Assembly: GCA_964499025.1 (NCBI GenBank)
Contig: CAZCJC010000009.1
Coordinates: forward strand, 3,519 to 67,518
Reading direction: 5' to 3'
Length of the DNA stretch: 64,000 nucleotides
Source: an uncultured Sangeribacter sp.
GTDB taxonomy: Bacteria > Bacteroidota > Bacteroidia > Bacteroidales > Muribaculaceae
The translations under genes and the position numbers were made by a program. Positions 25,316-43,246 of this stretch are shown here, one piece after another (position 1 is the first letter of the stretch; every line of letters begins with the position of its first letter). The notes under the pieces are model-generated. The model saw nothing but the letters and a program-made list of their open reading frames with translations, searched no databases and was not told where the DNA came from.

Positions 25316-25597
25316 TTGGATCTTTCTTCATTGCAACAAATAAAATTTCTTACTCGGAAAGTTGAGATAGTTGATAGAAAAGGAATAGGAAGAATTTTGA
25401 TTCTTCCTATAATCACATTATATGTAGAGAGTAAGAATAACTTTGGATCAACTTACTTCAGATCACCGGTTCGGGTAAAAATTATATCTTATGATGTGGA
25501 GGAATTCTTAGGAGAAGTTCCTCAAGTCACTTATATCGATTACAGTGTTAGAATAATTGATGATGGCGAAAATTTATGGCTTGAACCCATCAATTGA
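25316..25597 (+). CDS. Hypothetical 93-aa ORF (TTG start; uncertain or remnant)
   Basis: ORF track only; no recognisable motif. Confidence 0.3.
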   Translation: MDLSSLQQIKFLTRKVEIVDRKGIGRILILPIITLYVESKNNFGSTYFRSPVRVKIISYDVEEFLGEVPQVTYIDYSVRIIDDGENLWLEPIN

Positions 25598-26063
25598 GAG
25601 GAATATTTATATTAATTGAAGGTATTGGAGTCCAGAATGATTCCGGTGACCAGTGTATATTTATTACCCCTGGTGCGCCATATCTTCCCGAATATGGGTA
25701 AAGTTTCTGGATATAATGGCGACCATTTCTATAATATCTTACAATAAAGGTATCGCTATTTATTCTCCAAACCTTTACATCTCGGCTTCCACGAGTGGCG
25801 TATCTAATCATCTTTTCAAGTTCTCGATTAGGGGAATGGTGATTCTTCCGAATGTTCTGACCCGGTCTATTTACAAAATTATTGTGTTTTTTCTTATGAT
25901 CTTTTGTGGCATGTTGCCGGTGTGGTCTATCATTCCTATGATGATCCCTATTTCTGTCGGTATGCTCTAAGTGACCTCTGTTATTTTTGTGATGGTCAGC
26001 AAATACTTCTCCAGTTCCTGCCAGAGAGAATGCTATTATAATCAAAATTATTATTCTTTTCAT
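25590..26063 (-). CDS. Secreted His/Arg-rich hypothetical protein
   Basis: Signal peptide, about 12 His in residues 23-78, C-terminal PSININIPLN. Confidence 0.7.
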   Translation of the reverse strand: MKRIIILIIIAFSLAGTGEVFADHHKNNRGHLEHTDRNRDHHRNDRPHRQHATKDHKKKHNNFVNRPGQNIRKNHHSPNRELEKMIRYATRGSRDVKVWRINSDTFIVRYYRNGRHYIQKLYPYSGRYGAPGVINIHWSPESFWTPIPSININIPLN

Positions 26064-26177: not shown

Positions 26178-26254
26178 CATTTACATTTATAGATTAGAGA
26201 CTATTTGGATCATACATTTACATTTATAGATTAGAGACTATTTGGATCATACAT
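26178..26254. repeat. Perfect 37-bp tandem duplication
   Basis: catttacatttatagattagagactatttggatcata x2 plus cat; no spacer. Confidence 0.95.
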
Positions 26255-26265
26255 AAGAATATATT

Positions 26266-27573
26266 TTAAAAAGAGAACGACACAAAAGCACCTACTCTTC
26301 TTGCCCAGGCAGACTGACCGCTGAAATTCAGTCTTCTACCTAAGTTGAATTCAGCTGCGCATGATATTCTTGGAGTCAGATACCAGAAAACATTAGCTGC
26401 AATGTAAAGCCCCTGTTTATAATCATCGGGTTGAACTGCGTATCGGGGTGCATATCGAGTTCCTCCAAAAGTTGCGGATGCAAATATTGAAGGTGTAAAA
26501 TTATACTGTCCGGCAATGTATCCTCCGTAGCATAATGGAGAATATAAATCTCCCGGTTTTAGTGGATTTTCGACTAAGTCATAGGCACCCATCAACCAGT
26601 CGCCACCAAGACTTGCATACCCGTGTCCTGCGTTCATCATTCCATACACCGTAACGGCATGGTGAGGATGAAATACAGTGGAGATTTGAGTACCCCACCC
26701 GATTTTATTATGATTTTTTTCCTGAATTAAATTTCGGTATGGGAGTGAACGCAGAATACCGGAAAGTCGAATATGATTTGATCCCGGCCATGTCCATTGA
26801 AGGAACGCTGCCACATCAGGAATATATTGCTCGACTTTTGCAGTCTTATCAGGAATAATCTCTATCTGATCGGAAGGAGTTTCCACGGAAGCAGCAATGT
26901 AGAAGCCTTTGGGCAAGTTATGGAGCCAACGTATGAGAACCGCTGTTGCACTCATTTTTGCATTTGGACCCGATGCATCCACAGCCGGAGGGAGTGCGGT
27001 CGGATCGCTGAATGTAGAGCTGTCGTAACCGAATGTCCAATCGTTTATTCTTGCATATGCTTTTTTAAGATGAAAATCGCGCGCCTGATATCCATTAAAG
27101 TTAGCTTCAATATAAAGTTGATATTCACCAAATAGTTTATTAGTTCCGATGAGTCTGAAATAGAGAGCTGTTCCGGCTGGTGTGGTTCCAAAATATTTAT
27201 TCCGTAGAGGATTGTTTTGCATAGGGATAAGATAGGGGGCGAAACCCGGGGAAGGGATGGAACCACCCCAGTCAAAATAACCTCTCATCCTCACACATCC
27301 TCCCATTCCCATAGCAAGATTCGAATCTTTCGACAGAAACAGAAAATAAGGAGCTAAAGGATCTTGGAAATGCCGAAACTGATCTTCGTAAAATTTTCGG
27401 ATAAGATTGGACACTGTATCATTGGAGGGTGCATCATTTTTTCCGAAATAAATAATTTTATGCGAATTTATGGATGAATCCAAAAGAATATCTGTCATAT
27501 TTTTTGTTTGAGACAAAGCAATATTAAATGTGACGCTCAATAGGAAAATTATAATAAGCCTAATAATTTTCAT
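26266..27573 (-). CDS. DcaP-like outer-membrane porin
   Basis: Signal peptide, YIEANF...FHLKKAY...WTFGYDSSTFSD, PDVAAFLQW, C-terminal FVSFSF (BAM signal). Confidence 0.75.
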   Translation of the reverse strand: MKIIRLIIIFLLSVTFNIALSQTKNMTDILLDSSINSHKIIYFGKNDAPSNDTVSNLIRKFYEDQFRHFQDPLAPYFLFLSKDSNLAMGMGGCVRMRGYFDWGGSIPSPGFAPYLIPMQNNPLRNKYFGTTPAGTALYFRLIGTNKLFGEYQLYIEANFNGYQARDFHLKKAYARINDWTFGYDSSTFSDPTALPPAVDASGPNAKMSATAVLIRWLHNLPKGFYIAASVETPSDQIEIIPDKTAKVEQYIPDVAAFLQWTWPGSNHIRLSGILRSLPYRNLIQEKNHNKIGWGTQISTVFHPHHAVTVYGMMNAGHGYASLGGDWLMGAYDLVENPLKPGDLYSPLCYGGYIAGQYNFTPSIFASATFGGTRYAPRYAVQPDDYKQGLYIAANVFWYLTPRISCAAEFNLGRRLNFSGQSAWARRVGAFVSFSF

Positions 27574-27733: not shown

Positions 27734-30610
27734 ATGAATCGACGTTATTTTTGTACGCTCATGGCAGTAATTTTTGTTGCCATAAGTATTAACGCCAAAG
27801 TAAAACTTCCGACCGAGAAAGATTATGCCGGATATCTTTTCACTTATTTTACTGGTAATGACAATAAGAAAAACCAGGAAGCTATCCGTTTTGCGATAAG
27901 TGATGACGGTTATAATTTCAAGGCTTTGAATGGCAATCATCCTGTAATCTCCTCGGTTGACATAAGTGAGACCGGAGGAGTAAGAGATCCTCATATTTAC
28001 AGAGGTCCGGATAATTGTTTTTACATGGTTGTTACGGATATGGTTTGTGCAAACGGTTGGGATTCCAATCGAGGAATGACTTTTCTTAAATCATGTGATC
28101 TCATCAATTGGACCTCATCGGTTATAAATATTCAAAAGAAATATCCGGGACAGGAAGATTTGAAAAGGGTATGGGCACCTCAATCAATATATGATCCTAA
28201 AGCTAAAAAGATGCTTGTATATTGGTCAATGAAACATGGAGATGGCCCAGATATTATTTATTATGCGTACGCAAACAAGGATTTTACAGATATAGAGGGA
28301 ACGCCCAAACCTTTCTTTGTTCCGGCTGATGGAAAGTCGTGTATAGATGGTGATATAGTTGTTAAAGATGGTGCATATTATCTTTTCTATAAAACTGAAG
28401 GTCACGGCAATGGGATAAAAGTTGCTACAACAAAAGATCTTACATCAGGGAAATGGACGGAAGATCCGGAATATAAACAGCAGACGAAAGAGGCTGTTGA
28501 AGGGGCAGGGACATTCAAGTTGATCGGTGAGGATAAATATATCCTTATGTATGATGTTTATATCAAACATGGATATGATTTTACAGAAACGACAGATCTT
28601 AAGAATTTCAAAAATGTAGAGAAGAAGGTCTCAATGGATTTTCATCCACGTCATGGTACGGTTATCCCTATTACCGCAGATGAAATGAAACGTCTCAAAG
28701 AGAAATGGGGTGAGCCGGGAAAAGGCATCTCCGAAGCATCGGTATCAAGCCCGGATGGTAAGATATTTGTTACAGTAAAAGATAATAACGGTGTCCCGAC
28801 GTATAGTGTTAAATATAACGGGATAGAAATGATAAAGAACTCATCATTAGGCCTTCTTACGGATTATGCTGACTTTACTAAAGACCTAATTATGACTGCC
28901 CGTGAGGATTTCTCGGTTAATAAATCCTATAAGCTTGACAGGATTAAAAAATCAGAAATTAATTATGAGGCTAACCGTATGATCTGTGATTTCAAAACTA
29001 CATCAGGTGAGAAGATGAGTGTTGAGTTTATGGTTTCTGATAATGATGTGGCTTTCCGATATGTCTTGGGTAAACCAAAGAAAATTGGTTCTGTAAGAGT
29101 GATGGATGAAGTTACAGGGTTTACTTTACCAGACTATGCTACAGTATTTCTATCGCCACAAAGTGATGCTATGATTGGGTGGAAGAGAACTAAGCCCAGT
29201 TATGAAGAGGAATACATAATTGACGCTCCCCTTGAAACCAAATCTCAATATGGACATGGTTTTACATTCCCGGCACTCTTTAAGCTTGGGAATGATGGCT
29301 GGGTCTTGATCAGTGAGACAGGTGTTGACCGAAATTATTGTGGATCCCGCCTGTCGGATCAAAGTAATGGGACTTATACCATAGAGTTTCCTATGCCGGA
29401 GGAGAATAATGGTAATGGCACAGTCGAACCTGCTTTTGCGCTTCCAGGTGCCACGCCATGGCGAACCATAACGCTGGGTAATTCACTTGCTCCAATTGTG
29501 GAAACAACTGCAGCCTGGAATACAGTTGAACCTCGTTTTGATACAGAATTCTCATATGAACCTGACAAAGGAACCTGGAGTTGGATTCTCTGGCAGGATG
29601 ATTCAATAAATAAGGAAGACTTAACGAAGTTTATTGATCTTGCAGCTGCAATGGGATATAAGTATACTCTGATCGACTGTGGTTGGGATAAGTCGATCGG
29701 ATGGGATGGAATTGAGAAGTTGGTGGAATATGGTAAAACCAAAGGTGTTACTCCATTGATGTGGTATAGTTCCAGCGGTTATTGGAATGATATTGAGCAA
29801 AGTCCGATAAATATCATGGATAATCCCATAACCCGTAAAAAGGAGATGGCATGGCTGCAAAAGATTGGTATCAAAGGTATAAAGGTTGACTTTTTCGGTG
29901 GGGACAAACAGGAGACAATGCGATTGTATGAAGATATTCTTAGCGATGCGAACGATCATGGCCTGATGGTAATTTTCCATGGTTGTACACTTCCACGCGG
30001 ATGGGAAAAGCTCTATCCTAACTATGTCGGAAGTGAGGCCGTGTTAGCATCGGAGAATCTGATCTTCCAGCAGCATTTCTGTGATAAGGAAGCCGAAAAT
30101 GCCACTCTGCATCCTTTTATACGCAATTCAGTCGGATCTATGGAATATGGAGGAGTTTTCCTTAACAAGAGAATGAATAGAGGAAATAATGGCGGAAACT
30201 ATCGTCGCACTTCAGATGCATTCCAGCTTGCAATATCAGTATTGTTCCAAAGTCCAGCTCAGAATTTTGCTCTTGCACCCAATAATCTTGAAGATGCACC
30301 CAAAGATGCTCTTGACTTCTTAAAGATTGTGCCGACAAAATGGGATGATACCAAGTTTATTGACGGATATCCGGGGAAGTATGTAGTTATCGCAAGAGAG
30401 CATAAAGGAAAATGGTATTTATCCGGTGTGAATGCTACTGAGGAAACCATTGAAATTACGATCCCTTCTGATATTATTGGCCTTGGCTCGGGAATCCTTT
30501 ATAAGGATGGGGAGGGAAAAGAATTGGTAAAAGAAAATGTGGAATTGAAGAAAGGAAAAAAGTTTGTTGTCTCTATCCCTTCGCAAGGTGGTTTTGTTCT
30601 TGTGAAATAA
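27734..30610 (+). CDS. Fused GH43-like (arabinosidase-type beta-propeller) + GH97 glycoside hydrolase
   Basis: N-half: GVRDPH, WAPQS, CIDGD, EGAG, HPRHG; C-half: ASVSSPDGK, PSYEEEY, TWSWILW, GIKVDFF, FHGC, SEAVLASE. Confidence 0.88.
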   Translation: MNRRYFCTLMAVIFVAISINAKVKLPTEKDYAGYLFTYFTGNDNKKNQEAIRFAISDDGYNFKALNGNHPVISSVDISETGGVRDPHIYRGPDNCFYMVVTDMVCANGWDSNRGMTFLKSCDLINWTSSVINIQKKYPGQEDLKRVWAPQSIYDPKAKKMLVYWSMKHGDGPDIIYYAYANKDFTDIEGTPKPFFVPADGKSCIDGDIVVKDGAYYLFYKTEGHGNGIKVATTKDLTSGKWTEDPEYKQQTKEAVEGAGTFKLIGEDKYILMYDVYIKHGYDFTETTDLKNFKNVEKKVSMDFHPRHGTVIPITADEMKRLKEKWGEPGKGISEASVSSPDGKIFVTVKDNNGVPTYSVKYNGIEMIKNSSLGLLTDYADFTKDLIMTAREDFSVNKSYKLDRIKKSEINYEANRMICDFKTTSGEKMSVEFMVSDNDVAFRYVLGKPKKIGSVRVMDEVTGFTLPDYATVFLSPQSDAMIGWKRTKPSYEEEYIIDAPLETKSQYGHGFTFPALFKLGNDGWVLISETGVDRNYCGSRLSDQSNGTYTIEFPMPEENNGNGTVEPAFALPGATPWRTITLGNSLAPIVETTAAWNTVEPRFDTEFSYEPDKGTWSWILWQDDSINKEDLTKFIDLAAAMGYKYTLIDCGWDKSIGWDGIEKLVEYGKTKGVTPLMWYSSSGYWNDIEQSPINIMDNPITRKKEMAWLQKIGIKGIKVDFFGGDKQETMRLYEDILSDANDHGLMVIFHGCTLPRGWEKLYPNYVGSEAVLASENLIFQQHFCDKEAENATLHPFIRNSVGSMEYGGVFLNKRMNRGNNGGNYRRTSDAFQLAISVLFQSPAQNFALAPNNLEDAPKDALDFLKIVPTKWDDTKFIDGYPGKYVVIAREHKGKWYLSGVNATEETIEITIPSDIIGLGSGILYKDGEGKELVKENVELKKGKKFVVSIPSQGGFVLVK

Positions 30611-30623
30611 TCATATATACAAC

Positions 30624-33140
30624 ATGAAGAATAAGTTAATATATATTTTCGTTGCCGGCATGATGTCGGCAACATCCTTTTATTCTCATACCTCCTCTGC
30701 ATCTGTAGTTGAGAGCAATGATTCTGTCTATCTGTTTTCGTATTCTAAGTCAGGAGGTAAAAGTGGATTGAGACTTGCTTGGAGCGCGGAAGGAAAAGAA
30801 TGGCATTCGATCAAACCAAAGAGTATGTCAGACACAGAAGGATATGATTTCGTGAACTCAGATTTCGGCCCATGGGGAAGTTATAAGAAGATGGTCAATC
30901 CCAACCTTCGTCGCACGCAAGATGGTTGGGAGGTCCTATGGTTTGTCTCCGATAAAATGAAGACGCTGGGGTATGCACAGTCTCCCGATCTTATCCGGTG
31001 GTCTCCACAGTTATATAAGTCAGTAGAAAATATCAACGCAGGCTCAGGTGATGAAAAATATGTTGTGGCCAATATAGGTGGGAAAGAGAGAAGGGGAGAG
31101 ATAAGAAAGATTTCAGGAGATGATTTGAAAGTCTTGTTGTCTTATATGGATCATCGTGAGGATATGAACCAAAAACATGGTGAATTAATGAAGGATGATG
31201 CAGAAAGATTCCATAACTTAAAAACTTTAAAAGCCAATGTGTCTGTGGCCGGTTCACCAAAAAGTATAAGTGATAAGCTGATAGGGATATTTTTTGAAGA
31301 CATAAGTTATGCTGCAGATGGAGGTTTGTATGGTGAACTCATACAGAATCGTGATTTTGAATACAAACCTTCAGATAAGAACCGTGATAAGTGGGATGCT
31401 TCTTACTCTTGGACTTTTAAAGATGGAGCTGGTAATCCCCTTTCGATGACCTTCTCTGATGTTTCTCCTCTGCATCCAAATAATTCTACATATTTATCAA
31501 TAGAGGGTATTCCGGGGCAAACTAAACTTTCTAACGGAGGTTTTGATGGAATTTCCCTGTTAAAAGGTGATAAATATCTCTTTTCCCTGTATGGACGTGC
31601 TTCCCAAAAGAATGTTAAGGCAAAAGTGAATCTTGTGTCAAAAGATGGAGATCTGTTAGGAACAGGAACAATCAAGATATCCGGTAACAAGTGGAAAAAG
31701 TATGAGTTGACTCTCATCTCTAATCAGACTGCTTCGGGAGCGACCCTTGAGATAGAATTTCCTAAGGAATGTAAAGTAGACCTTGATTTCATATCTCTCT
31801 TTCCACAAAATACATTCAAGGGAAGGAAGAATGGTCTAAGAAATGATTTGGCAAACATTTTGGCCGATTTAAAGCCAAGATTTGTCAGATTCCCCGGAGG
31901 GTGTGTAGCGCATGGAGATGGAATAGATAATATATATGATTGGAAGGGATCTATTGGACCGTTGTATGCAAGAAAACCACTCAGGAATATTTGGAATTAT
32001 CATCAGTCAAGAGGACTTGGATATCATGAATATTTTGAGTTTTGTGAAGATTTAGGAGCAGAGCCGCTTCCTGTTCTTGCTGCTGGAGTACCATGCCAGA
32101 ACTCAGGCCGTCCATATTCCGGGTCGATAGACGAGTTGACTTCCTATGGGCAGCAATGCGGCATACCCATGCAAAAAATGGATGAATATGTGCAAGACAT
32201 ATTAGACCTTATAGAATATGCCAATGGTCCCGTTGATTCTGAATGGGGCTCAAAAAGGAAAGAAGCCGGTCATCCGGAACCATTCAATCTTAAATATATA
32301 GGGATAGGTAATGAAGATATGATTACCGAACCCTTTAAAGAGCGCTTCAAGTATATTCATGATATTTTAAAAGAAAAACATCCGGAGATCACTGTAATTG
32401 GTACTGTCGGCCCATTCTACGAAGGAACAGATTACACTGAAGGCTGGGATTTTGCGAAGAAGGAAAATGTGGCTATGGTTGATGAACACTATTATGTTGA
32501 GCCGGGGTGGTTCGTGAATCATAGAAACTTCTATGATGATTATGACCGCAATGGCCCAAAGGTTTATCTTGGGGAGTATGCATCTCACCTGAAAGATAGA
32601 AAAAATACTCTGGAGGCTGCTCTTACCATCGGTCTATATCTCACGGATGTAGAGCGTAACGGAGATGTAGTATCCATGACATCATACGCTCCTCTTCTTG
32701 CTAAGGAGGGACATGTTAATTGGCGTCCGGATTTGATCTTCTTCAATAACGACTCTATAAAGTTAACTCCTGATTATTATGTTCAGAAACTTTACGGGCA
32801 AAATTCTGGAGAACTATATTTCCCGGCTAATCTCACTATAAATGTGGAAGATCCGAATATAACTAAAAGAGTAGGCCAATCTATCGTAAAAGATGAAACG
32901 ACAGGGGATATTATAATAAAATTTGCCAATCTCCTACCGGTTTCAATTGAGGTTAACGAAGATCTTGGCGCGTTGATCTCTGGAAATTCGAAAGGAAATA
33001 TGACCTATATAGCAGGTAATCCGGCTGATGAAAGCACTAAACCGATTACCTCATCCGTTTCTATAGTAAATGGGAATGTTAATTTTGAAGCTCGTCCCTA
33101 TTCCTTCAGTGTATTAAGATTCAGCTCTGATTCTAAATGA
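30624..33140 (+). CDS. GH51 alpha-L-arabinofuranosidase with N-terminal extension
   Basis: GIFFEDISYAADGGLYGELIQNRDFE, RFPGGC, GIGNED, VDEHYY, YLGEYA, TSYAPLL. Confidence 0.92.
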   Translation: MKNKLIYIFVAGMMSATSFYSHTSSASVVESNDSVYLFSYSKSGGKSGLRLAWSAEGKEWHSIKPKSMSDTEGYDFVNSDFGPWGSYKKMVNPNLRRTQDGWEVLWFVSDKMKTLGYAQSPDLIRWSPQLYKSVENINAGSGDEKYVVANIGGKERRGEIRKISGDDLKVLLSYMDHREDMNQKHGELMKDDAERFHNLKTLKANVSVAGSPKSISDKLIGIFFEDISYAADGGLYGELIQNRDFEYKPSDKNRDKWDASYSWTFKDGAGNPLSMTFSDVSPLHPNNSTYLSIEGIPGQTKLSNGGFDGISLLKGDKYLFSLYGRASQKNVKAKVNLVSKDGDLLGTGTIKISGNKWKKYELTLISNQTASGATLEIEFPKECKVDLDFISLFPQNTFKGRKNGLRNDLANILADLKPRFVRFPGGCVAHGDGIDNIYDWKGSIGPLYARKPLRNIWNYHQSRGLGYHEYFEFCEDLGAEPLPVLAAGVPCQNSGRPYSGSIDELTSYGQQCGIPMQKMDEYVQDILDLIEYANGPVDSEWGSKRKEAGHPEPFNLKYIGIGNEDMITEPFKERFKYIHDILKEKHPEITVIGTVGPFYEGTDYTEGWDFAKKENVAMVDEHYYVEPGWFVNHRNFYDDYDRNGPKVYLGEYASHLKDRKNTLEAALTIGLYLTDVERNGDVVSMTSYAPLLAKEGHVNWRPDLIFFNNDSIKLTPDYYVQKLYGQNSGELYFPANLTINVEDPNITKRVGQSIVKDETTGDIIIKFANLLPVSIEVNEDLGALISGNSKGNMTYIAGNPADESTKPITSSVSIVNGNVNFEARPYSFSVLRFSSDSK

Positions 33141-33547
33141 AATATGAGATTGTTGAGTTACCGCGTCATCTTGACGTAAGAGGTAATCTTTCAGTTGTTG
33201 AAAGCGGTATAAATTTGCCATTTGATATAAAACGGGTATATTATATTTATGATGTCCCGGGAGGTGAAAGCCGAGGTAGCCATGCTCATAGGGCTACCCA
33301 GGAGATGATTATTGCTGTAGGGGGCAGTTTTAGCGTCAATCTTGAATACGATGGTAAAACTGAAAGCATATTGCTCAATAAACCCTACATCGGCCTTTTG
33401 ATCCATCCGGGAGTATGGCGGACACTCGTTGATTTTTCTTCCGGTGCAGTAGCGCTGGTTTTGGCCTCAGATTTCTTTGATGAAGGAGATTATATCAGGG
33501 ATTACCAGGAGTTCAAAAGCTTGCAGAATGATCCCAATACAAAATAA
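33137..33547 (+). CDS. fdtA: dTDP-6-deoxy-3,4-keto-hexulose isomerase (FdtA/QdtA cupin)
   Basis: DVRGNLSVVE, IKRVYYIYDVP, RGSHAH, YIRDY; ATGA overlap with GH51 stop. Confidence 0.85.
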   Translation: MKYEIVELPRHLDVRGNLSVVESGINLPFDIKRVYYIYDVPGGESRGSHAHRATQEMIIAVGGSFSVNLEYDGKTESILLNKPYIGLLIHPGVWRTLVDFSSGAVALVLASDFFDEGDYIRDYQEFKSLQNDPNTK

Positions 33548-33556
33548 CAATAGCCT

Positions 33557-34672
33557 ATGATAAAATTCCTTGATTTAAAAGCGGTTAACGACTCTTATGG
33601 AAAAGATGTCAATGCCGCTGTAAACAGGGTTATCTCTTCCGGCTGGTATCTGCTTGGGGATGAACTCAAAAATTTTGAAAAGGAATATTCCGACTATATT
33701 GGCGTGCCCTATACAATAGGGTGCGCCAATGGTTTGGATGCTCTTACTCTTATTTTAAAGGGTTATATTGAGCTGGGGGTATTTAATCCGGGAGATGAAA
33801 TAATTGTTCCCTCCAACACCTATATTGCTTCCATATTGGCCATATCTGAAAATGGATTGGTTCCTGTATTGGTTGAACCTGATATTGATACGCTCCAGAT
33901 AGCTCCCGAGAAAATTGAAGAGAGGATAACTTCGAGGACAAAAGGTATCATGCTTGTGCACCTTTATGGAAAATGTGCGTATACTCTAATGATAAAGGAT
34001 ATATGTGAAAAGTATAATCTAAAGTTGATAGAGGATAATGCACAGGCCCATGGTTGCGAGTATAAAGGTAGAAAGACAGGTTCTTTGGGAGACGCAGCAG
34101 GACATAGCTTTTATCCAGGAAAAAATTTAGGATGTCTTGGAGACGGAGGTGCAATAACTACCTCCGACCGGCTTCTTGCAGAAACAGTAAGGAGTCTTGC
34201 CAATTATGGTTCCCCTAAAAAATATATATTTGATTATAAAGGCAGAAATTCTAGATTGGATGAAATACAGGCAGCAGTATTAAGGACCAAACTTTCACGT
34301 TTGGAGGGAGATAATGAAAAGCGTAGATACGTTGCAAAGAGATATTCTGAAGAAATCATAACCCCTCATATAATTATCCCCCAGGGATTAAAAAAACCGG
34401 ATAAAGATAATGTTTATCATATCTTCCCTATATTATGTAGTGAGCGAGATCGTCTTCAGAAATATCTTCATGATTCAGGAATACAGACCCTGATTCATTA
34501 TCCAATTCCTCCTCATTTACAAAAATGTTATAAGTCAGGAGAATTGAATCTTCCCGACTCCCTAACTGTTACTGAACTCATTCATAACAGAGAACTTTCT
34601 TTACCGATTTCACCGGTAATGGATGAGAGAGAAGTAGATTACATAATTAAAAAATTGAATTCGTTTAAGTAG
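33557..34672 (+). CDS. fdtB: DegT/DnrJ/EryC1/StrS sugar aminotransferase (FdtB/QdtB-like)
   Basis: [49 protein letters not shown]. Confidence 0.85.
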
Positions 34673-34851
34673 TTGGTAAAAATTAATGAACAAATAAAAC
34701 GAAGTTATTTTTGAGCAGATTTTACTGCGGAAAGAGGGAGCAGACTTTCGTATGCTACTGAATGGCAATACAAAAGGTGCCGAAAAAGAACCAGTTTTAT
34801 TGTCCAAGATTATCAACTACAATATATCAATTAATTTAAAAAAACTACTTA
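34666..34851 (+). repeat. Dispersed structured element copy E (186 bp, TA-flanked, TIRs)
   Basis: taagtagttggtaaaaattaat ... attaatttaaaaaaactactta; core gagggagcagac-tttc-gtatgctactga. Confidence 0.85.
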
Positions 34852-34864
34852 AATAATAATAGAT

Positions 34865-35038
34865 ATGTTACCCAAAGATCCATTTATGCTTTACAGTGCT
34901 GTTAATATGAAACTCCGAGATTCTTATGATAATCTTGGTGAATTATGTGCTGCCGAAGGGATATCCAGAGATGAATTAGAGTCCAAATTAAAGTCCGTCG
35001 GATTTGAGTATGATCCCCAAATAAATCAGTTCAGATAA
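34865..35038 (+). CDS. DUF4250-family small protein (57 aa)
   Basis: Read manually: MLPKDPFMLYSAVNMKLRDSYDNLGELCAAEGISRDELESKLKSVGFEYDPQINQFR. Confidence 0.85.
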   Translation: MLPKDPFMLYSAVNMKLRDSYDNLGELCAAEGISRDELESKLKSVGFEYDPQINQFR

Positions 35039-35045
35039 AATAATT

Positions 35046-35516
35046 ATGGGTATAGAGATTGAAAGAAAATATCTTGTAAAAGATTCCTCTTTCAAAGGGA
35101 TGGCTGTATCAAAACATAACATGATACAGGGCTATTTGAGTAGGGATCCTGAACGGACAGTAAGAATAAGGTTAAAGGATAATACCGCATTTATCACTGT
35201 CAAAGGAATAACAAAAGGGGAAAGCCGTTTGGAATTTGAATATGAGATTCCTTACGAAGATGCTTTGGAATTAATTAAGTTGTGCGAATCTCCGGTGATT
35301 GATAAGACACGATATAATGTGCCTTATGGTAATTTTATATGGGAAGTTGATGAGTTCCATGGTCAACTTGAAGGGCTGACTTTAGCAGAGATAGAACTTC
35401 CTTCCACTGATACGGAATTTTTAATTCCTTCGTTTATCGGTAAGGATGTTACAGGCGATCCAACATATTATAATTCAAATTTGCATGCTCTTTCTATTTC
35501 TAATCTTCATGAGTAA
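35046..35516 (+). CDS. CYTH domain protein (triphosphate tunnel metalloenzyme)
   Basis: EIERKYL, QGYL, RIR, EFEYEIP, WEVDEF, AEIEL. Confidence 0.9.
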   Translation: MGIEIERKYLVKDSSFKGMAVSKHNMIQGYLSRDPERTVRIRLKDNTAFITVKGITKGESRLEFEYEIPYEDALELIKLCESPVIDKTRYNVPYGNFIWEVDEFHGQLEGLTLAEIELPSTDTEFLIPSFIGKDVTGDPTYYNSNLHALSISNLHE

Positions 35517-35520
35517 AGTA

Positions 35521-35706
35521 TAAGTAGTTGTTAAAAATTAATTGATATATTGTAGTTGATAATCTTGGACAATAAAAACTGGCTCTTTTTGGTATCTTTT
35601 ACCTTGTCATTCAGTCACATCCGAAAGGTAGCTCCCTCTTTTCGGAGCAAAATCCACTCAAAAATAACTTCGTTTTGTACGTTCATTAATTTTTGCCAAC
35701 TACTTA
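35521..35706 (-). repeat. Dispersed structured element copy F (186 bp), inverted relative to E
   Basis: Reverse complement begins taagtagttggcaaaaattaatgaac; 43 bp identical to E. Confidence 0.85.
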
Positions 35707-35762
35707 AAAAGTTGAGAATAGTATAACCTTTCGCCCTAATATAAATATCCAGGTTAAAGAGA

Positions 35763-38183
35763 ATGAAATACACCTCCGGTGCTAATAAGTTTATTGAAAC
35801 AATTGTTTGCGTCATTTTTTTGATGACGTTTACCTTTGTATGCGCCGATAAAATCTATTCTCAAGATAAACCGCCGGGAATTTATTCAGAGAAAAAAGAT
35901 TCCATACCTGTTTCTGAAGAGGAGTTGAAGAATGCCAAAGCACGTGATTTAAAAGAGGTAATAGTAACAAAAAAGCATCAAAAATATTCTAAGAAAAATA
36001 ATCCGGCCGTAGATCTTATGCAACGCATAAGAAAAGATAAAGAAAGTCACAATCCGGAGCGGGAACCATATTATAGTTTCGACAAATATGATAAAATGGT
36101 TCTTGCATTCAATGAATTTGATGTTGACCTGACAATGCCAAGCGGGAAATGGAAGAATAAAGTAAGATTTTTCTCCAATTATGTTGATACGGCAGCCTGG
36201 ACCGGAAAAAGAATTCTTGATTTATCATTGAAGGAAAAATACTCGGTTGTTCTTTCAGGTGAAAAAAGAGGAAAAAGGAAAGAGATTATTACCGGTTTGC
36301 GTAGCAATGGCTTGGATGAAGGATTTAATCAGGATAATATCCGATATGTCCTCGAAGATGTTTTCAGAGAAATCGATGTCTATGATAACGACATTACCCT
36401 GATGCAAAATAGATTTGTATCTCCATTATCATCCATAGGAGCGGATTATTATAAATATGAAATAACAGATACTGTCGTTGTTGGTGGTGAAGATTGTGTT
36501 GAATTGTCTTTTTATCCGCATAATCCCGAATCATTCAGTTTTAATGGCAAATTGTTCATTCCGGTTGCTGACTCAGTAAAATATGTTAAGAGGGTAAGCA
36601 TGCGCATTCCGAAAGCAATTAACTTGAATTATATAGAGGGATTGTACATTAGTCAAAATTTTACCCGTGATAGTCTTGGCAATACTCATAAGACGTTGGA
36701 TGATATAAGTGTGGAGTTCAAGATCCTGCCAAATATTCCCAAGCTTTTTACTTCCCGTCAGACTCGTTATGATAATTTCTCATATGATTCGATGCCCCTA
36801 TATGATGAGTACGAAGGAATGTCAGGGGAGGTAATTATAAAAGAGGGTGCAGAAAAAAGATCTGCAGAGTATTGGGAGACTGTAAGGATGCTACCGTTGT
36901 CTTCGGCACAATCAAAAATTGGAGATATGATGAGCCGCTTCCGTAGTGTTCCCTTGTTCTATTGGGCTGAAAAAGTCCTGAATGTGTTGGTCAATGGATA
37001 CATCACTACCGGAAACCCCAGTAAATTTGATATTGGCCCAATGAATACGACACTCAGCTACAACACTGTGGAGGGAATGAGATTCAGGGTAGGTGGTATT
37101 ACTACTCCGGCACTTTCACGTAGATGGTTCGGTCGAGGATATGTGGCTTATGGTTTAAGAGATCGCAAATTAAAATATAAGGGAGAAGTTGAATATTCTT
37201 TTATAGATAAAAAATATAGTTCCCGAGAATTCCCTTTAAATTCAATTCGTGCAACTTATCAGTATGATACTGACCAATTAGGACAGCATTATCTTTTCAC
37301 CAACTCAGATAACGTTTTTTTATCTTTAAAAAGAAAGAGCAGCGACTTGGTGACTTATCGCCGGCTGGCTCAGTTAGAGTATAATCTTGAGTTGAAGAAT
37401 AATCTTTCGTTCGGTGTGGAACTACGTCATGAGGTTCAGGAAGCCACTCCTTGGGTTCCGTTTATTACTGGTACCGGAATTGAAGTTAATAAATTTACAC
37501 AAGCAGTTGGTAAAATTAGAATCAGATATGCTCCCGGTGAGAAATTTGTGCAGGGCATGACAACGAGAATGCCTATAAATATGGATGCTCCAGTCATTAT
37601 GTTGACGCATGAATTTGGTCCGAAAGGATTTTTAGGTTCAGATTTTACTTTGAATAAGACGGAATTATCTGCTCAGAAAAGAATATGGTTCTCCTCCTTT
37701 GGCTATTCAGACATAGTTCTGAAAGGGGGAATTATCTGGAGTAAAGTGGAGTTCCCGGCATTGTTGTGGCAGAATGCAAATTTGTCTTATACAATTCAGC
37801 CTGAATCATACTCACTTCTTAATCCCATGGAATTTGCTATGGATAAATATATGTCTCTTGATTTTACATATTTTATGAATGGATTGATTTTTAATAGGAT
37901 TCCTCTTGTCAAAAAACTAAAATTAAGGGAGGTTTTTACTTTCAAAGGATTCATGGGGTCGTTAAGTGATAAGAACAATCCATATTTAAATAATGAACTT
38001 TTCAGGTTTCCGACCGATAGTTATACAATGCCGATTGGACGAAAACCATATATGGAGATTGGGGCTGGAATAGATAATATATTTTCCATTCTTAGAGTAG
38101 ATTATGTTTGGCGGCTTACATATAGAGATAATCCCGGAATTGATAAAAGCGGATTGAGGATCTCTCTCCATTTTTCTTTTTAG
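35763..38183 (+). CDS. DUF5686-family outer-membrane protein
   Basis: KYSKKNNPAV, FVSPL, YNTVEGMRFRVGG, PYMEIGAGIDNI, terminal HFSF. Confidence 0.8.
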   Translation: MKYTSGANKFIETIVCVIFLMTFTFVCADKIYSQDKPPGIYSEKKDSIPVSEEELKNAKARDLKEVIVTKKHQKYSKKNNPAVDLMQRIRKDKESHNPEREPYYSFDKYDKMVLAFNEFDVDLTMPSGKWKNKVRFFSNYVDTAAWTGKRILDLSLKEKYSVVLSGEKRGKRKEIITGLRSNGLDEGFNQDNIRYVLEDVFREIDVYDNDITLMQNRFVSPLSSIGADYYKYEITDTVVVGGEDCVELSFYPHNPESFSFNGKLFIPVADSVKYVKRVSMRIPKAINLNYIEGLYISQNFTRDSLGNTHKTLDDISVEFKILPNIPKLFTSRQTRYDNFSYDSMPLYDEYEGMSGEVIIKEGAEKRSAEYWETVRMLPLSSAQSKIGDMMSRFRSVPLFYWAEKVLNVLVNGYITTGNPSKFDIGPMNTTLSYNTVEGMRFRVGGITTPALSRRWFGRGYVAYGLRDRKLKYKGEVEYSFIDKKYSSREFPLNSIRATYQYDTDQLGQHYLFTNSDNVFLSLKRKSSDLVTYRRLAQLEYNLELKNNLSFGVELRHEVQEATPWVPFITGTGIEVNKFTQAVGKIRIRYAPGEKFVQGMTTRMPINMDAPVIMLTHEFGPKGFLGSDFTLNKTELSAQKRIWFSSFGYSDIVLKGGIIWSKVEFPALLWQNANLSYTIQPESYSLLNPMEFAMDKYMSLDFTYFMNGLIFNRIPLVKKLKLREVFTFKGFMGSLSDKNNPYLNNELFRFPTDSYTMPIGRKPYMEIGAGIDNIFSILRVDYVWRLTYRDNPGIDKSGLRISLHFSF

Positions 38184-38250
38184 GTAGGTTATATTGATTT
38201 TGTACTAAATTATCAACTTATTATAGGATGAGTTTTATACTGATATATAA

Positions 38251-38928
38251 ATGATATTAACATCGGAATATTTGCAGGAACGCTTTTGTTTTTGGATTGA
38301 TAAAATTGCAGAAGCCGGTATATGGGATAGATCAAAATTCTTACCAGTGGAATTGATAATGAGAAAGAAGTCTAAAAGATTTGCCGGAAAATTTGTGAGA
38401 AAGTATAAATTAGGAGTAGGTGGAGAACGCTTCAAAGATCATATCATCATATATCGGAAGTCAACGGATATATCACCCAAGGAAATAGATGAAATTTTGG
38501 TCCATGAGATGATTCATTTATATATCTGTCAGAATAATTTGAAGGATACGTCTGCCCATGGGAAATTGTTTAAATATTATATGAATGAGATAAATAGGGC
38601 ATTTGGTGATCTTATTAACATATCATTACGATTATCCGGTACAAATGAGAAAGGATCAGGAAGTAAAAATCATTTGTTATTAGTATTATGGTTTGACAAT
38701 AATGAAATTTATTGCTGCGATATAAATCCTAAAAAGATTAATTACTTCCGCAGATTTTTGGATGAGAATCGCTTTAGAAAGAATCTCATGAAATTCGGAT
38801 GGTATACTTCTAACAACACCTATTTTGACTCCTTTGTCACCTGTTATAGGAGCCTCCACGGGAAGAAAATGTCAGCAATTCAATTGGACCAGTTATTTGA
38901 AGAGTGCAAAATAACCCCGATATTATAA
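38251..38928 (+). CDS. SprT-like zinc metalloprotease domain protein
   Basis: ILVHEMIH (HExxH) followed by HGKLF. Confidence 0.8.
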   Translation: MILTSEYLQERFCFWIDKIAEAGIWDRSKFLPVELIMRKKSKRFAGKFVRKYKLGVGGERFKDHIIIYRKSTDISPKEIDEILVHEMIHLYICQNNLKDTSAHGKLFKYYMNEINRAFGDLINISLRLSGTNEKGSGSKNHLLLVLWFDNNEIYCCDINPKKINYFRRFLDENRFRKNLMKFGWYTSNNTYFDSFVTCYRSLHGKKMSAIQLDQLFEECKITPIL

Positions 38929-39085
38929 TAGTTCTTAATTAGTTGAGAACTATATAATTGTGATGGGTAACAAATTTAGGGTAGAATAATCTGTATTCGA
39001 TATTCAGAAGAATACATAAATAGTCTCCCGCCTTTGTTTTTTCTCTTTATAAAGAAAGGCTAAATTTTAGTTTCAAGGCTGTCAT

Positions 39086-39269
39086 TAAGTAGCTCGCTGA
39101 AATAACTGAATATATAAAACGCCGTGATTTTGAATTAATTTTGGTTTCGGATGAAGGAGCATAGCGGCCTATGTAGCTGAAGTCGAAGTCAAAAGTAATA
39201 CAAAAGAACAAGTTTTAGCATTCATTATTCTCATTTTATTTTCATTAATTAATTTTTGTGAGCCACTTA
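39086..39269 (+). repeat. Dispersed structured element copy A (184 bp)
   Basis: taagtagctcgctgaaat ... atttttgtgagccactta; core gaaggagcatag-cggc-ctatgtagctga. Confidence 0.9.
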
Positions 39270-39324
39270 TACTGAATTTTTAATTAAATTTGTAAATTCT
39301 AATCGACATCCATGCATTGAATAT

Positions 39325-41268
39325 ATGAGGATAATAAAAAACATAGGGATAGCAATTGTAACATTGAGTGTATCTTTTGGCGCTTTGTTTGCTGCTCCCA
39401 AGCTCCCGGTAGTAGAGATTCTTGGAAAGAATTATTATGTATATGAGATAAAAAAGGGTGATTCATTATTTGGAATTTCCAGAGAATATGATTGGGATTA
39501 TACGGAATTGCAGAAATTGAATCCTAATGCGATTGCCCCCCTTCAAAAGGGGATGAAAATTTATTATCCCGTTACCGAGAATGATGATCATGTTTACACC
39601 CCGGTAGTAGTTCCGGAAGAAACAGAGTTAACTCCGGTAAAACATGTGGTTAGAAGAGGTGAGACAGTTTACGGAATCTCTCGGATGTATAAGATTCCAA
39701 TTGAAACAATATATGCCCTTAATCCTTCAAGTAGGGAAGGGATAAAGGAAAATGAGATCTTAAAGCTTCAGACGGAAGTGAAAGAGGAGAATGATTCTAA
39801 TACTCCAGAGTATTATACAATAAAGAGTGGAGACACTCTTTATCGTCTTGCCAAGACCTACAATACTTCGGTTGCTGCAATTCTTAAGAAAAATCCAGGT
39901 ATCTCAGAGAAGAATTTCAGGGCAGGAGAAACCATTCGTCTCCCCGAAAGAGGCACAGGGATAAGGAAAACAATTAAAACCGTTGAAGAGGAGAGACTTG
40001 CGTCCTTCTCAACTTATAAAGTAGAAAAGAAGGACACATGGGAATCTATTGCAGAAAAAACAGGTGTCGATAAAGAAGAATTAAAGGAAGCAAATAAAGA
40101 ATTTGGAGACAAACCGAAAAACAAGGCTTTGGTTTCCATCCCCAATATAGATACAATCAGTGTTGAAAGAGTAGTTATTGAGGAGGATCCGCGAGAGTTG
40201 ACGGCTGAGGGTATAGCAGAGATATATGAAGATGTTCACGGACTTTCGGATTCAATTCAGAATGGCTCAGTAAAAGTAGCCTTGGTTCTGTCTGAGCCAA
40301 CCTCCCGGAAAGATCTCGAATTTTCTCGTGGGTTCTTGGCTGGGATTGACAGAATAAAGAGGGGTAAGATAAAAATTGAACTTTCCATTATTGATGGAAA
40401 TAGGCCCTCATCGGAAGTGCTGGAAAATTTATCAGAATTTGAGCCGGATATCTTGTTCCTGACTACGGAGAAGGGGATACCTACTTATCTGTCGGAATAT
40501 GCAGAAATAAGTCAGACACCGATGGTGAATACATTTGATGTTAAGAACGAGTTGTATACTCGCAATCCATACGTGATTCAGCTTCTGACCCCCTCCAATT
40601 ATTTTAATGATGAAATAGCATCGCGTGTGAAAAGTGACTACAGCGATTATACATTGGTTTTTGTTGGAGAGGAAGAATCCGGAGATCAATTGGCTGCTGC
40701 TCTTAAAGATGATTGGAATAAGGTCATCTCTCTTTCTATAGAAGATTTATCATCTTTCAGAATGTCAGAATCCGGGAAATATCTATTTTATGGAAACCCA
40801 TCTAAAAAAGACCAGATAGAAAGTCTGCTTTCGGGAATTATCGAATTAAGGAACACCAATCCTCTTTCTGAAATTATAGTATTAGGAAGACCGAGTTGGA
40901 TCGTGTTTGATGATACAATGGAGGAACAGTTTCACAAATGTAACGTATTGTTGCCATCAAGATTTTATTACGATAAGGATTCCACTGAAGGAAGAAGGTT
41001 TGCTTCTGCATATACATCGTTATTTGATAGAACACCGGCTAAATCTTATCCGATGTATGCCGGCGTAGGCTATGATGCAGCTCATTATTTTATTGAAGGG
41101 CTTGCTAAGTCTGGAAGAGACATGAACATGATGGGAGCCTCAAGATCCGGGGCACAAAGTGATTTTGACCTCTATAGGCCTGGAAACTGGACTGGTTTTA
41201 TGAATCCGACAGTATTCTTAGTTAGATTTACACCATTCAATACAATAGAAAAAATCGTTGTAAAATGA
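39325..41268 (+). CDS. Multi-LysM peptidoglycan-binding protein with C-terminal periplasmic-binding-protein-like domain
   Basis: Four LysM repeats (YEIKKGDSLFGI, HVVRRGETVYGI, YTIKSGDTLYRL, YKVEKKDTWESI), signal peptide. Confidence 0.85.
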   Translation: MRIIKNIGIAIVTLSVSFGALFAAPKLPVVEILGKNYYVYEIKKGDSLFGISREYDWDYTELQKLNPNAIAPLQKGMKIYYPVTENDDHVYTPVVVPEETELTPVKHVVRRGETVYGISRMYKIPIETIYALNPSSREGIKENEILKLQTEVKEENDSNTPEYYTIKSGDTLYRLAKTYNTSVAAILKKNPGISEKNFRAGETIRLPERGTGIRKTIKTVEEERLASFSTYKVEKKDTWESIAEKTGVDKEELKEANKEFGDKPKNKALVSIPNIDTISVERVVIEEDPRELTAEGIAEIYEDVHGLSDSIQNGSVKVALVLSEPTSRKDLEFSRGFLAGIDRIKRGKIKIELSIIDGNRPSSEVLENLSEFEPDILFLTTEKGIPTYLSEYAEISQTPMVNTFDVKNELYTRNPYVIQLLTPSNYFNDEIASRVKSDYSDYTLVFVGEEESGDQLAAALKDDWNKVISLSIEDLSSFRMSESGKYLFYGNPSKKDQIESLLSGIIELRNTNPLSEIIVLGRPSWIVFDDTMEEQFHKCNVLLPSRFYYDKDSTEGRRFASAYTSLFDRTPAKSYPMYAGVGYDAAHYFIEGLAKSGRDMNMMGASRSGAQSDFDLYRPGNWTGFMNPTVFLVRFTPFNTIEKIVVK

Positions 41269-41951
41269 AATTGCGAGCGATCGGTTTATTATTTTTGATG
41301 ATTGGCTTAGCAAGTCTGTCGGCAATGGGACAGACCCATTATTCATCAAACGTAGCAGTTGGAGTGAAGGGTGGAGTGGATCTCTCAAGAGTAATGTTCA
41401 CCCCAAGTATTAAACAAAGTTTTTTATTGGGAGCAAATGCCGGACTTACCTTTAGATATATTGAAGAAAATCACTTCGGTTTGATAGCAGAAGTCAATTT
41501 TGAACAACGAGGATGGAAGGAGGATTTTGAAGAATATCCATTCGAGTATTCGCGAACAGTTGACTACATTCAGATTCCTCTTTTAGCACACATATATTTC
41601 GGTGGGAGAGGACGTTTCTTTTTAAATCTTGGCCCGGAAATAGGCTTTAGGATAGGAGAATCAACAAAAGCAAATTTCGACTATAACAATATAGCCTCAA
41701 TACCTGATTTCCCATCATCAATAAGAAATACCTACCAATATCAGATGGCCGCTGAAAATAAGGTGGATTTTGGTATATCTGCAGGTCTCGGCGGAGAATA
41801 CAATATTACAAAAAGAAATTCGCTTTATCTTGAGGCAAGAGTATATTATGGGTTGGGGAACGTCCTTAAATCCGGTCGTACCGAACACTTCAGAGGTTCA
41901 AATTCTTTATCCATCATGGCAAGTATTGGATATTGGTTTAGAATTAAATAA
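41265..41951 (+). CDS. Outer-membrane beta-barrel (porin family, PorT-like)
   Basis: GVKGG, EVNFEQRGW, YIQIPLL, LEARVYYGL, terminal YWFRIK. Confidence 0.8.
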   Translation: MKLRAIGLLFLMIGLASLSAMGQTHYSSNVAVGVKGGVDLSRVMFTPSIKQSFLLGANAGLTFRYIEENHFGLIAEVNFEQRGWKEDFEEYPFEYSRTVDYIQIPLLAHIYFGGRGRFFLNLGPEIGFRIGESTKANFDYNNIASIPDFPSSIRNTYQYQMAAENKVDFGISAGLGGEYNITKRNSLYLEARVYYGLGNVLKSGRTEHFRGSNSLSIMASIGYWFRIK

Positions 41952-42025: not shown

Positions 42026-42215
42026 TAAGTTGCCTAAACTAATTTACGAAAGCTAAAAAGCGTGTAAAATAAATTCTTTTATTAATCTTTACAGATCTTT
42101 TGGGCGCATTTTACTCTTCATCGATGTCAACCAAAAGGTTTCCGCCTATCCAAATGAAAAAAGTCAGCTTCAAAATATCTCGAAAAAATTAACAAAAATT
42201 AGTTTATGCGACTTC
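42026..42215 (-). repeat. Dispersed structured element, subfamily 2, copy G (190 bp)
   Basis: TIR aagttgcctaaactaattt / aaattagtttatgcgactt; colinear with 54513-54702. Confidence 0.85.
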
Positions 42216-43063: not shown

Positions 43064-43246
43064 TAAGTAGCTCGCAGAAATTAATGAATAGATAAAACGC
43101 AGTGATTTTGAGTTGATTTCGGTTTTGGCTGAAGAAGCATAGCGGGCTATGTGACTGAATGCAAGACTGGAATTAATATAAAAGAACAAGTTTTAGCATT
43201 CATTAAGCCATTTTATATACATTAATTAATTTTTGTGAGCTACTTA
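43064..43246 (+). repeat. Dispersed structured element copy B (183 bp)
   Basis: taagtagctcgcagaaattaat ... attaatttttgtgagctactta; core gaagaagcatag-cggg-ctatgtgactga. Confidence 0.9.

Follow-up and report, generated by a model that had tools for sequence, protein, structure and literature searches.

Bacterial MITEs derived from IS630/Tc1-mariner transposons include RUP in Streptococcus pneumoniae and Nezha in cyanobacteria. The Correia repeat-enclosed elements of Neisseria (CREE or NEMIS) likewise duplicate a TA target. They are non-coding, about 100–200 bp long and bounded by terminal inverted repeats (TIRs) of about 25 nt, and they occur in many intergenic copies that form hairpins and insert into one another as well as at the ends of genes. 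In Neisseria these elements have been linked to rearrangements and inversion (PMC10969869, PMC2649163, PMC3454330). For Porphyromonas gingivalis, a member of the order Bacteroidales, MITE families such as BrickBuilt and MITE239 have been named (PMC10969869, PMC2575886). Inverted repeats around a short chromosomal segment also characterize the invertons of Bacteroidales, among them invertible promoters, shufflons and intragenic invertons, which are called with PhaseFinder or PhaVa. Known invertons possess short dedicated repeats, an invertase that is usually encoded nearby or acts globally, and both orientations in sequencing reads. They are common in Bacteroidales (PMC11892184, PMC10028968).

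The window, that is the whole 64-kb stretch of DNA analysed here, contains an arrangement that can be compared with each of these systems. Element E (34666–34851, + strand) and element F (35521–35706, − strand) are each exactly 186 bp long and face each other, F lying between the stop codon of a CYTH gene and the start of a DUF5686 gene. A repeat finder returned arms of 188 nt (34664–34851 and 35521–35708) that are 83% complementary and spaced by 669 nt, and sequence comparison gave about 85% identity between the two elements, with the mismatches concentrated in the middle. Inside the inner arms, 34795–34837 in E is the exact reverse complement of 35535–35577 in F over 43 bp, and extension by a single base fails on either side. 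The only genes between E and F encode a DUF4250 protein of 57 aa (34865–35038, + strand; Pfam PF14056, E=1.7e-24) and a CYTH-domain protein of 156 aa (35046–35516, + strand; Pfam PF01928, E=1.3e-11). Direct checking of the letters and the Pfam assignments thereby bear out the geometry described in an earlier note on this DNA, from the facing 186-bp pair and its diverged cores to the perfect 43-bp repeat and the two enclosed genes. The description of E and F as paired MITEs proved right as well, both being copies of one MITE-like family. The same note had gone on to propose that the pair forms an inverton or a mini composite transposon. The findings below point to a different origin: with a probability of roughly 85%, E and F were inserted independently of each other as copies of a non-autonomous MITE family that duplicates TA targets and abounds in this uncultured Bacteroidales lineage; the pair neither constitutes a gene-carrying transposon nor bears the mark of a programmed switch.

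At least six copies of the family, including E and F, are found in the window, all of them intergenic; the element measures about 185 bp (183–186 bp). Two subfamilies can be distinguished. E and F are type-1 copies with 92.5% and 90.3% identity to the type-1 consensus, respectively, while family matches identified copies C (39086–39269, + strand), D (43064–43246, + strand) and G (50296–50478, − strand) as type-2. A decayed core fragment at 18503–18595 (− strand) has lost its terminal repeats. These further copies, which the earlier note had not mentioned, correspond to a density of about one family copy per 10–13 kb of the window. The TIRs follow the pattern TAAGTAG...CTACTTA and are 22–24 nt long and 83–91% complementary in E and F; a 22-nt TIR pattern matched three times in the window compared to zero matches expected from shuffled sequences. 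TIRs are kept in about 40 copies, and both ends co-vary between the two subfamilies. In 130 fetched loci the family was matched at 92 places, many of them from a metagenome that also contains the E/F locus. A scan of representative genomes, a collection to which the window's own genome does not belong, yielded only a handful of genuine copies, located in Sangeribacter and other MAGs. Searches for the family in plasmid and phage collections as well as in viral contigs were negative.

The copies contain only ORFs of 56–68 aa with TTG starts, and no conservation between E and F was found at the protein level. Relative to the flanking genes they are oriented in both directions. As a single strand, copy D forms a long hairpin (−61.9 kcal/mol, z = −8.2) and F folds with z = −4.0, while E folds poorly (z = −2.7). 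Small size, non-coding character, TIRs, a target-site duplication and dispersed intergenic copies are thus all present, as expected for MITEs. Taken together, this appears to be an undescribed family of TA-duplicating MITEs with two subfamilies and frequent nesting, residing in uncultured Muribaculaceae-like bacteria, an affiliation indicated by the homologues of CYTH and by the syntenic loci. It shares no sequence similarity with the Correia elements, which belong to another host phylum. The functions attributed to the latter are promoters, an IHF site and RNase III cleavage; here, a scan for sigma-70 promoters and terminators revealed sites no commoner than expected from shuffling. The Bacteroides-type −7 motif TAnnTTTG was observed inside E and F; it occurs at 1.25 per kb in the window, without its −33 TTTG partner, and was set aside for these reasons. 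The resemblance to the MITEs of P. gingivalis concerns their occurrence in the same order and is drawn by description only.

The mode of insertion can be read from nested copies and from an empty site. In three nested insertions on metagenome contigs (L087, L062, L116) the host copy is broken at a single consensus TA, which is then found on both sides of the inserted copy. For E, the presumed duplicated target is TA at 34666–34667 and TA at 34850–34851. Reconstruction of the empty site with the closest relative, L002, gives TCGTT-TA-AATAA: removal of E and one TA restores TCG TTT AAA TAA and hence the C-terminus SFK followed by a stop, exactly as in L002, where the DegT protein ends ...SFK-TAA. 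The spacer behind the reconstructed DegT stop would be 8 nt long, compared to 9 nt in L002. Nested insertions and empty site agree in showing TA as the target duplicated by the family, a property shared, together with size and TIRs, with the IS630/Tc1-mariner-derived MITEs. Different from these, no IS630-type transposase with matching ends was found in the window or in the fetched loci. Within the fetched loci, no transposase gene is enclosed by TIRs lying 230–4000 bp from each other, so that the transposase family can be judged solely from the TA duplication, which makes an IS630/Tc1-mariner-type enzyme the best guess. Duplications of 2–4 bp are also made by some elements of the IS5 group. 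A transposase remnant beside a truncated family copy in L014 was considered as the partner and rejected, being of the unrelated IS982 type (PF13612). The elements would have been moved by a transposase acting in trans.

Both insertions lie inside an old row of co-directional genes. In the window a DegT/DnrJ/EryC1 aminotransferase gene (33557–34672, + strand) is located directly upstream of DUF4250, and the DUF5686 gene (35763–38183, + strand) is the conserved downstream neighbour. The DegT stop codon TAG (34670–34672) is situated inside E, a point also absent from the earlier note. The insertion of E rewrote the last lysine codon and the stop codon of DegT from AAA TAA to AAG TAG and left the protein unchanged; E thus illustrates cleanly how an insertion can alter a stop codon and leave the protein sequence intact. 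Eight loci of relatives (L002, L003, L131-L136) show the order GH97-GH51-FdtA-DegT-DUF4250-CYTH-DUF5686 on one strand, with LysM-OMP downstream. DUF4250 occupies the same position in all of them, and the CYTH homologues, 62–78% identical, keep the same gene order. The DegT-DUF4250 gaps of the relatives span 9–25 nt and are free of elements, and CYTH and DUF5686 either overlap or are at most 91 nt apart, with F absent. BLAST for family copies in these eight loci returned none, the sole match being 20 nt in L003 (E=0.002). Since eight syntenic loci carry the two genes without the elements, the DUF4250-CYTH cassette is, as judged by gene order, native to the locus and not a passenger.

The divergence of E and F is in line with separate origins. 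E differs from the type-1 consensus at 14 positions and F at 18, and only two of these changes are common to both. Copies closer to E were found at other loci (92.5%, 90.9% and 90.4% identity) and likewise copies closer to F (89.8% and 88.8%). The identity of about 85% between the two is what would be predicted from their respective identities to the consensus. Against this background the 43-nt run of perfect identity needs a special explanation, because it is the longest among 21 copy pairs of 83–87% identity (the next being 39, 39 and 36 nt) and its probability amounts to 0.003–0.017 if differences are placed uniformly. Runs of at least 43 nt do occur in 45 of 231 type-1 pairs, namely in the more similar ones. 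Mere subfamily-wide conservation or chance was considered as the source of the 43-mer and rejected, the E-F pair ranking first among pairs of comparable identity.

A second haplotype of E, found in L001 and L142, reveals how the run may have arisen. These two loci carry T at both 34804 and 34816 and match F without interruption over no more than 18 nt. Within the 43-mer, the window's E differs from them only at these two positions, where it has C and A, in both cases the state of F. L051, the nearest relative of E, shows T/T at these sites like L001 and L142, and C at 34804 is restricted to F copies and the window's E. Compared to the type-1 consensus, the left arm differs at two sites, 34804 and 34829. 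The suggestion of the earlier note that recent gene conversion lies behind the local identity therefore gains support from an E without the 43-mer and a window E changed to the F state. With moderate support from this sequence comparison, a short non-reciprocal conversion of E by F, spanning 34804–34816 or more, would have created the exact 43-bp repeat in the window's lineage. The argument presupposes that the haplotype of L001 and L142 is real; its E carries seven odd private changes, while the 669 bp of coding sequence show none. The two assemblies do not differ from one another and may stem from related samples. If the conversion took place as proposed, E and F represent a small, datable case of gene conversion between neighbouring copies that generates a substrate for recombination.

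One copy was inserted into the 8–9 nt spacer between DegT and DUF4250, by which the DegT stop codon was rewritten, and the other between CYTH and DUF5686. After both insertions, conversion from F to E would have erased two differences in that arm. Recombination of the RecA type between the two 43-bp arms might now and then invert the 697-bp segment 34838–35534 as a by-product.

Several other readings of the locus have to be weighed against independent MITE insertions. That the two elements brought DUF4250-CYTH here as the passenger of a mini composite transposon, as the earlier note had considered, is suggested by two genes flanked by two copies of one family, but it is contradicted by the same cassette at the same site and in the same orientation in the eight element-free loci. 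Moreover, each element is nearer to copies elsewhere than to its counterpart, the unit was seen at no other locus, and the exact DUF4250 and CYTH proteins were seen in this gene context only, so that neither a foreign passenger nor a second occurrence accompanies the flanking copies; we consider this origin hardly credible. Conserved synteny of DUF4250-CYTH without the elements was one half of what the earlier note had named as speaking against its proposal. The good folding of D and F and the intergenic position of all copies would also fit structured RNAs or regulatory elements (terminators or sRNAs, for example) that are kept for their function and are not mobile DNA. Against this speak the nested copies and TA duplications, which are marks of insertion events, the occurrence of copies in both orientations relative to genes, the poor folding of E, terminator and sigma-70-like sites at the shuffled level, and a search of Rfam that gave no match to the family at the gathering threshold or even at E<=1; a function of this kind is highly improbable. 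A programmed inverton, whose site-specific invertase would flip the cassette and so switch its read-through from the operon on or off, fits the geometry, since inverted repeats do flank a short segment in a member of the Bacteroidales. No recombinase, invertase or transposase gene, however, and in particular no tyrosine or serine recombinase gene, was found in the 64 kb (ORFs of at least 120 aa were scanned, eight overlapping scanned genes being left out), and in contrast to the dedicated repeats of invertons the repeats here are 186-bp transposon copies of an ordinary dispersed family, whose other copies bracket no invertible segments. A global invertase may be encoded at a distance from this DNA. 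The 43-mer is missing in the second haplotype, and the repeats are wholly absent in the relatives. With the three assemblies that resolve the orientation (the window, L001 and L142) all showing the native form, the inverton reading of the earlier note finds no support, and we regard it as very unlikely. The E/F pair is mobile-DNA litter of an ordinary kind and not a demonstrated genetic switch. Where a genome is dense in MITEs, genes come to lie between inverted copies by chance, a situation that mimics invertons or composite transposons and calls for caution; synteny in relatives quickly resolves such look-alikes.

A passive inversion polymorphism is compatible with independent MITE insertions and has to be judged on its own. 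RecA-type recombination across the 186-bp copies would flip 34838–35534 in part of the population and place DUF4250-CYTH antisense to the operon. A length of 43 bp exceeds the minimum usually quoted for efficient RecA-dependent recombination, and the signature of gene conversion indicates that E and F have interacted. In addition, the Logan contig L141 (1183 bp) carries the join that an inversion would give: the reverse-complemented 5' end of DUF5686 is followed by the outer part of F, the 43-mer, the inner part of E, DUF4250 and the start of CYTH. The changeover is located precisely within the 43-mer; elsewhere the contig is free of mismatches compared to the window, and it breaks off within CYTH at 35170. 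Logan assembles its contigs at k=31 and prunes the graph (PMC12424806), and all k-mers of L141 up to k=44 are also present in the native window, so that L141 decides nothing on the orientation, neither for nor against. It is the sort of mis-join to be expected at low coverage, and its use as proof of inversion was rejected on these grounds. The other inverted junction (the DegT end, E and the reverse-complemented CYTH end) had no match in the metagenome contigs, in which the organism is rare, with a pattern that fits the window haplotype only. Sequencing runs with this organism at 100% identity are SRR13282551, SRR13282552, SRR13282554, SRR13282568 and SRR13282578. As the three resolving assemblies are native, a passive inversion seems rather unlikely to us. 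It is still more doubtful that L141 represents a real inverted allele and that two chance MITE insertions, after gene conversion, act as a recombination-driven, invertase-independent flip-flop of DUF4250-CYTH in and out of the read-through of the sugar-modification operon. If this were the case, gut Bacteroidales would quite generally gain new gene-cassette invertons from dense MITE families.

For inversions bounded by exact repeats of more than 30 nt, assemblies at k=31 are unusable as a means of calling the orientation. Logan contigs of three other runs end at the edge of the 43-mer, and contig L143 has its first base at 35535, on the border of the repeat, which marks a branch point of the de Bruijn graph.

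E and F form a single long inverted pair, for which the repeat finder returned arms at 34664-34851 and 35521-35708 (188 nt, 83% complementary, 669 nt spacing), each arm with its own terminal inverted repeats of 22-24 nt (TAAGTAGTTGGTAAAAATTAAT ... ATTAATTT..CTACTTA). Script checks gave a length of 186 bp for both E (34666-34851, plus strand) and F (35521-35706, minus strand) and confirmed that 35535-35577 is the exact reverse complement of 34795-34837, a 43-nt match that cannot be extended on either side. Only the genes for DUF4250 (57 aa) and CYTH (156 aa) are enclosed. The geometry described in the earlier note is thus correct as stated; it overlooked that the DegT aminotransferase gene upstream has its stop codon (TAG, 34670-34672) within E. 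The structure is real and its explanation ordinary, two copies of a MITE-like family, to which a small and tidy case of probable gene conversion is added.

Searching the window with E and F by BLAST revealed further family copies at 39086-39269 (C, plus), 43064-43246 (D, plus) and 50296-50478 (G, minus) as well as a decayed core at 18503-18595. The window copies are all intergenic and occur in both orientations relative to the neighbouring genes. The best-preserved copy folds into a long hairpin (-61.9 kcal/mol, z = -8.2); the fold is weaker in F (z = -4.0) and weakest in E (z = -2.7). Rfam gave no match to the family, whether at the gathering threshold or with the limit relaxed to E<=1, and nothing resembling it was found in plasmid, phage and viral collections. 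With a degenerate terminal-repeat pattern, only a few true copies were recovered from representative genomes (uncultured Sangeribacter, another MAG, partial copies in 'Bacteroides sp.' MAGs), and 106 stretches matched in metagenome contigs, many of them in assembly WFLX01, which also contains the E/F locus itself. BLAST located family sequence at 92 sites across the fetched loci. Alignment of about 40 full-length copies resolved two subfamilies, type 1 (TAAGTAGTTGGTAAAAATTAATGAAC...) with E and F among its members and type 2 (TAAGTAGCTCGCAGAAATTAATGAAT...) including the other three window copies.

Type-1 copies carry TATTTTTG, matching the Bacteroides -7 promoter motif TAnnTTTG, at 34706-34713 (plus) and 35659-35666 (minus). 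It points from the 5' end inwards, in E towards DUF4250 and in F antisense into CYTH. Since the window contains TAnnTTTG 1.25 times per kb and no correctly spaced -33 TTTG accompanies the motif here, it is only a weak lead.

Transposition of the family is documented by copies nested within copies in four contigs; nesting was noted at L051/L086 (869-1236), L062 (2222-2588), L087 (941-1307) and L116/L043. In L087, L062 and L116 the consensus of the host subfamily shows just one TA where the copy is interrupted, and the insert is flanked by TA on both sides. Type 1 is found within type 2 and the reverse, which shows activity of the two subfamilies in shared genomes and the use of TA sites inside elements as targets. 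An empty site is provided by the closest relative, L002 (CYTH 78% identical), whose DegT-DUF4250 junction reads ...TCT TTT AAA TAA ATTATCTGT ATG, compared to ...TCG TT-TA-[AGTAG...CTACT]-TA-AATAATAATAGAT ATG in the window. Taking out E and one TA restores TCG TTT AAA TAA followed by an 8-nt spacer; insertion of E therefore turned AAA TAA into AAG TAG and left the DegT protein unaltered. TA duplication, nesting and an empty site in a relative are hallmarks of a MITE, and the E/F pair shows the testable defining features of this class, partner transposase aside. Duplication of TA is typical of IS630/Tc1-mariner-type transposases, which makes such an enzyme the candidate here, and is also caused by Correia/NEMIS and RUP-type elements. 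No autonomous element sharing these ends turned up among the fetched loci. The sole transposase remnant adjoining a truncated copy is in L014 (4891-5260), where a type-1 end of 25 nt runs into an IS982-type transposase gene (PF13612, E=3e-29) of which the C-terminal half is left, interrupted by a stop codon; we rejected this decayed junction as the partner.

The family can be likened to the Neisseria Correia/NEMIS elements and to RUP and other IS630-derived MITEs. Like them, it is small, has terminal repeats and the potential to form hairpins, nests within its own copies and inserts at gene ends (PMC10969869; PMC2649163, PMC3454330). The likeness does not extend to a sequence relationship, and scanning for sigma-70-like promoters and terminators gave only chance-level matches.

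The earlier note had considered that the MITE pair mobilises DUF4250-CYTH as a mini composite transposon. Contigs of CYTH homologues were collected and inspected. In L002 and L003 (CYTH identity 78% and 71%) the order (FdtA-)DegT-DUF4250-CYTH lies on one strand, with one more gene after CYTH in L003; the DegT-DUF4250 gap is 9 nt in L002 and 16 nt in L003, where 91 nt separate CYTH from that gene. Six more loci from Muribaculaceae-type MAGs and runs (62-63%) show GH97-GH51-FdtA-DegT-DUF4250-CYTH-DUF5686-LysM-OMP, the order of the window from 27734 to 41951, with DegT-DUF4250 gaps of 11-25 nt and CYTH and DUF5686 either overlapping by 4 nt or 70-82 nt apart. BLAST detected no family copy in these eight loci, the sole match being 20 nt in L003 (E=0.002). 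The cassette is native, in the same place without the elements, and not a foreign passenger, which rules out a composite transposon. Conserved synteny without the elements, one half of the outcome that the earlier note had named as speaking against its proposal, is thereby seen in eight loci, and the present cassette orientation is ancestral. A SprT-like gene (38251-38928) between DUF5686 and the LysM gene adjoins copy C and is missing from the relatives' syntenic loci, in which about 95-175 nt separate DUF5686 from LysM; a lineage-specific insertion may account for it.

Counted against the type-1 consensus, 14 changes are present in E and 18 in F, only 2 of them common to both. From their identities to the consensus (92.5% and 90.3%) about 84% would be expected between E and F, and 85% is observed. 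Both have nearer kin elsewhere: some copies at unrelated loci reach 92.5%, 90.9% and 90.4% identity with E, others 89.8% and 88.8% with F, more than E and F share. E and F are thus independent copies, and their diverged cores simply reflect separate descent from a common master.

The 43-bp identity points towards a later event. In this young subfamily long perfect runs are frequent, with at least 43 nt in 45 of 231 type-1 pairs, namely the more similar ones; among the 21 pairs at 83-87% identity, that of E/F is the longest (next 39, 39 and 36), with P = 0.003-0.017 under random placement of differences. A second haplotype is seen in contigs L001 (WFLX01) and L142 (VIDP01), which are mutually identical, come from assemblies that may not be independent and cover the locus in native order. 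Their coding sequence equals that of the window, as do the 669 bp enclosed by E and F; one position differs in F and 9 of 186 in E, including T at 34804 and at 34816; the longest E/F run in this haplotype is 18 nt. T/T is also present in L051, E's nearest relative, and C at 34804 occurs, apart from the window E, only in F copies. Hence the window E arm carries two derived changes, 13 nt apart, both to F's state, for which two random changes would have a rough chance of about (30/186 x 1/3)^2 = 0.003. The simplest reading is that a short F-to-E gene conversion produced the identity, and the proposal of gene conversion in the earlier note stands. As a caveat to this reading, seven of the nine variants, mostly transversions, are private, non-consensus changes towards the outer side of E, and one breaks the TAAGTAG end, which is invariant elsewhere. 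A mutation hotspot at this place, conversion from some copy outside the sample or an assembly error common to both contigs could be their source.

An inverton switching the cassette for phase variation was the other proposal, and nothing beyond the geometry points to such a programmed switch. Pfam scans of window ORFs of at least 120 aa, except eight overlapping scanned genes, yielded genes for housekeeping and glycan utilisation, none for a recombinase or transposase, so the nearby recombinase of an inverton is missing from the scanned ORFs. Exact-protein look-ups led to Logan contigs of the same strain. Four of them, L137-L140, match the window at 100% identity and stop 28 nt into E, and the start of L143 coincides with 35535, where the 43-mer has its inner edge. 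L141 (SRR13282568_6845, 1183 bp) joins window 36384-35521 to 34795-35170, giving reverse-complemented DUF5686, F-outer, 43-mer, E-inner, DUF4250 and the start of CYTH, within which it ends abruptly. This is an inverted junction with the switch within the 43-mer and otherwise no difference from the window. However, all its k-mers up to k=44 are present in the native window. Logan contigs are 31-mer-based and undergo graph simplification (PMC12424806); native and inverted genomes share identical 31-mer sets, so that such a contig can come from either when low coverage loses a branch. We therefore rejected L141 as proof of inversion. All three orientation-resolving assemblies (window, L001, L142) are native, and the reciprocal junction had no match in metagenome contigs, weak evidence given how rarely the organism occurs in them. 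General recombination could plausibly invert the segment, a hypothetical event of low probability. The type-2 copies D and G, with 91% identity over 93 nt, are likewise inverted relative to each other at a distance of 7.2 kb and enclose lpxA together with an RND efflux operon; this pair, too, should be called an inverton only with caution.

Intergenic regions at 42027-42215, 50619-50693 and 54514-54700 contain another repeat family that has no relation to the MITE, about 190 bp long in two copies and shorter in one, with the conserved core AAGTTGYCTAAACTAATTTACGAAAGTTAAAAATCGT. At 26178-26251 a 37-nt unit is perfectly duplicated in tandem in the intergenic region between the minus-strand ORFs 25590-26063 and 26266-27573, both without Pfam match.
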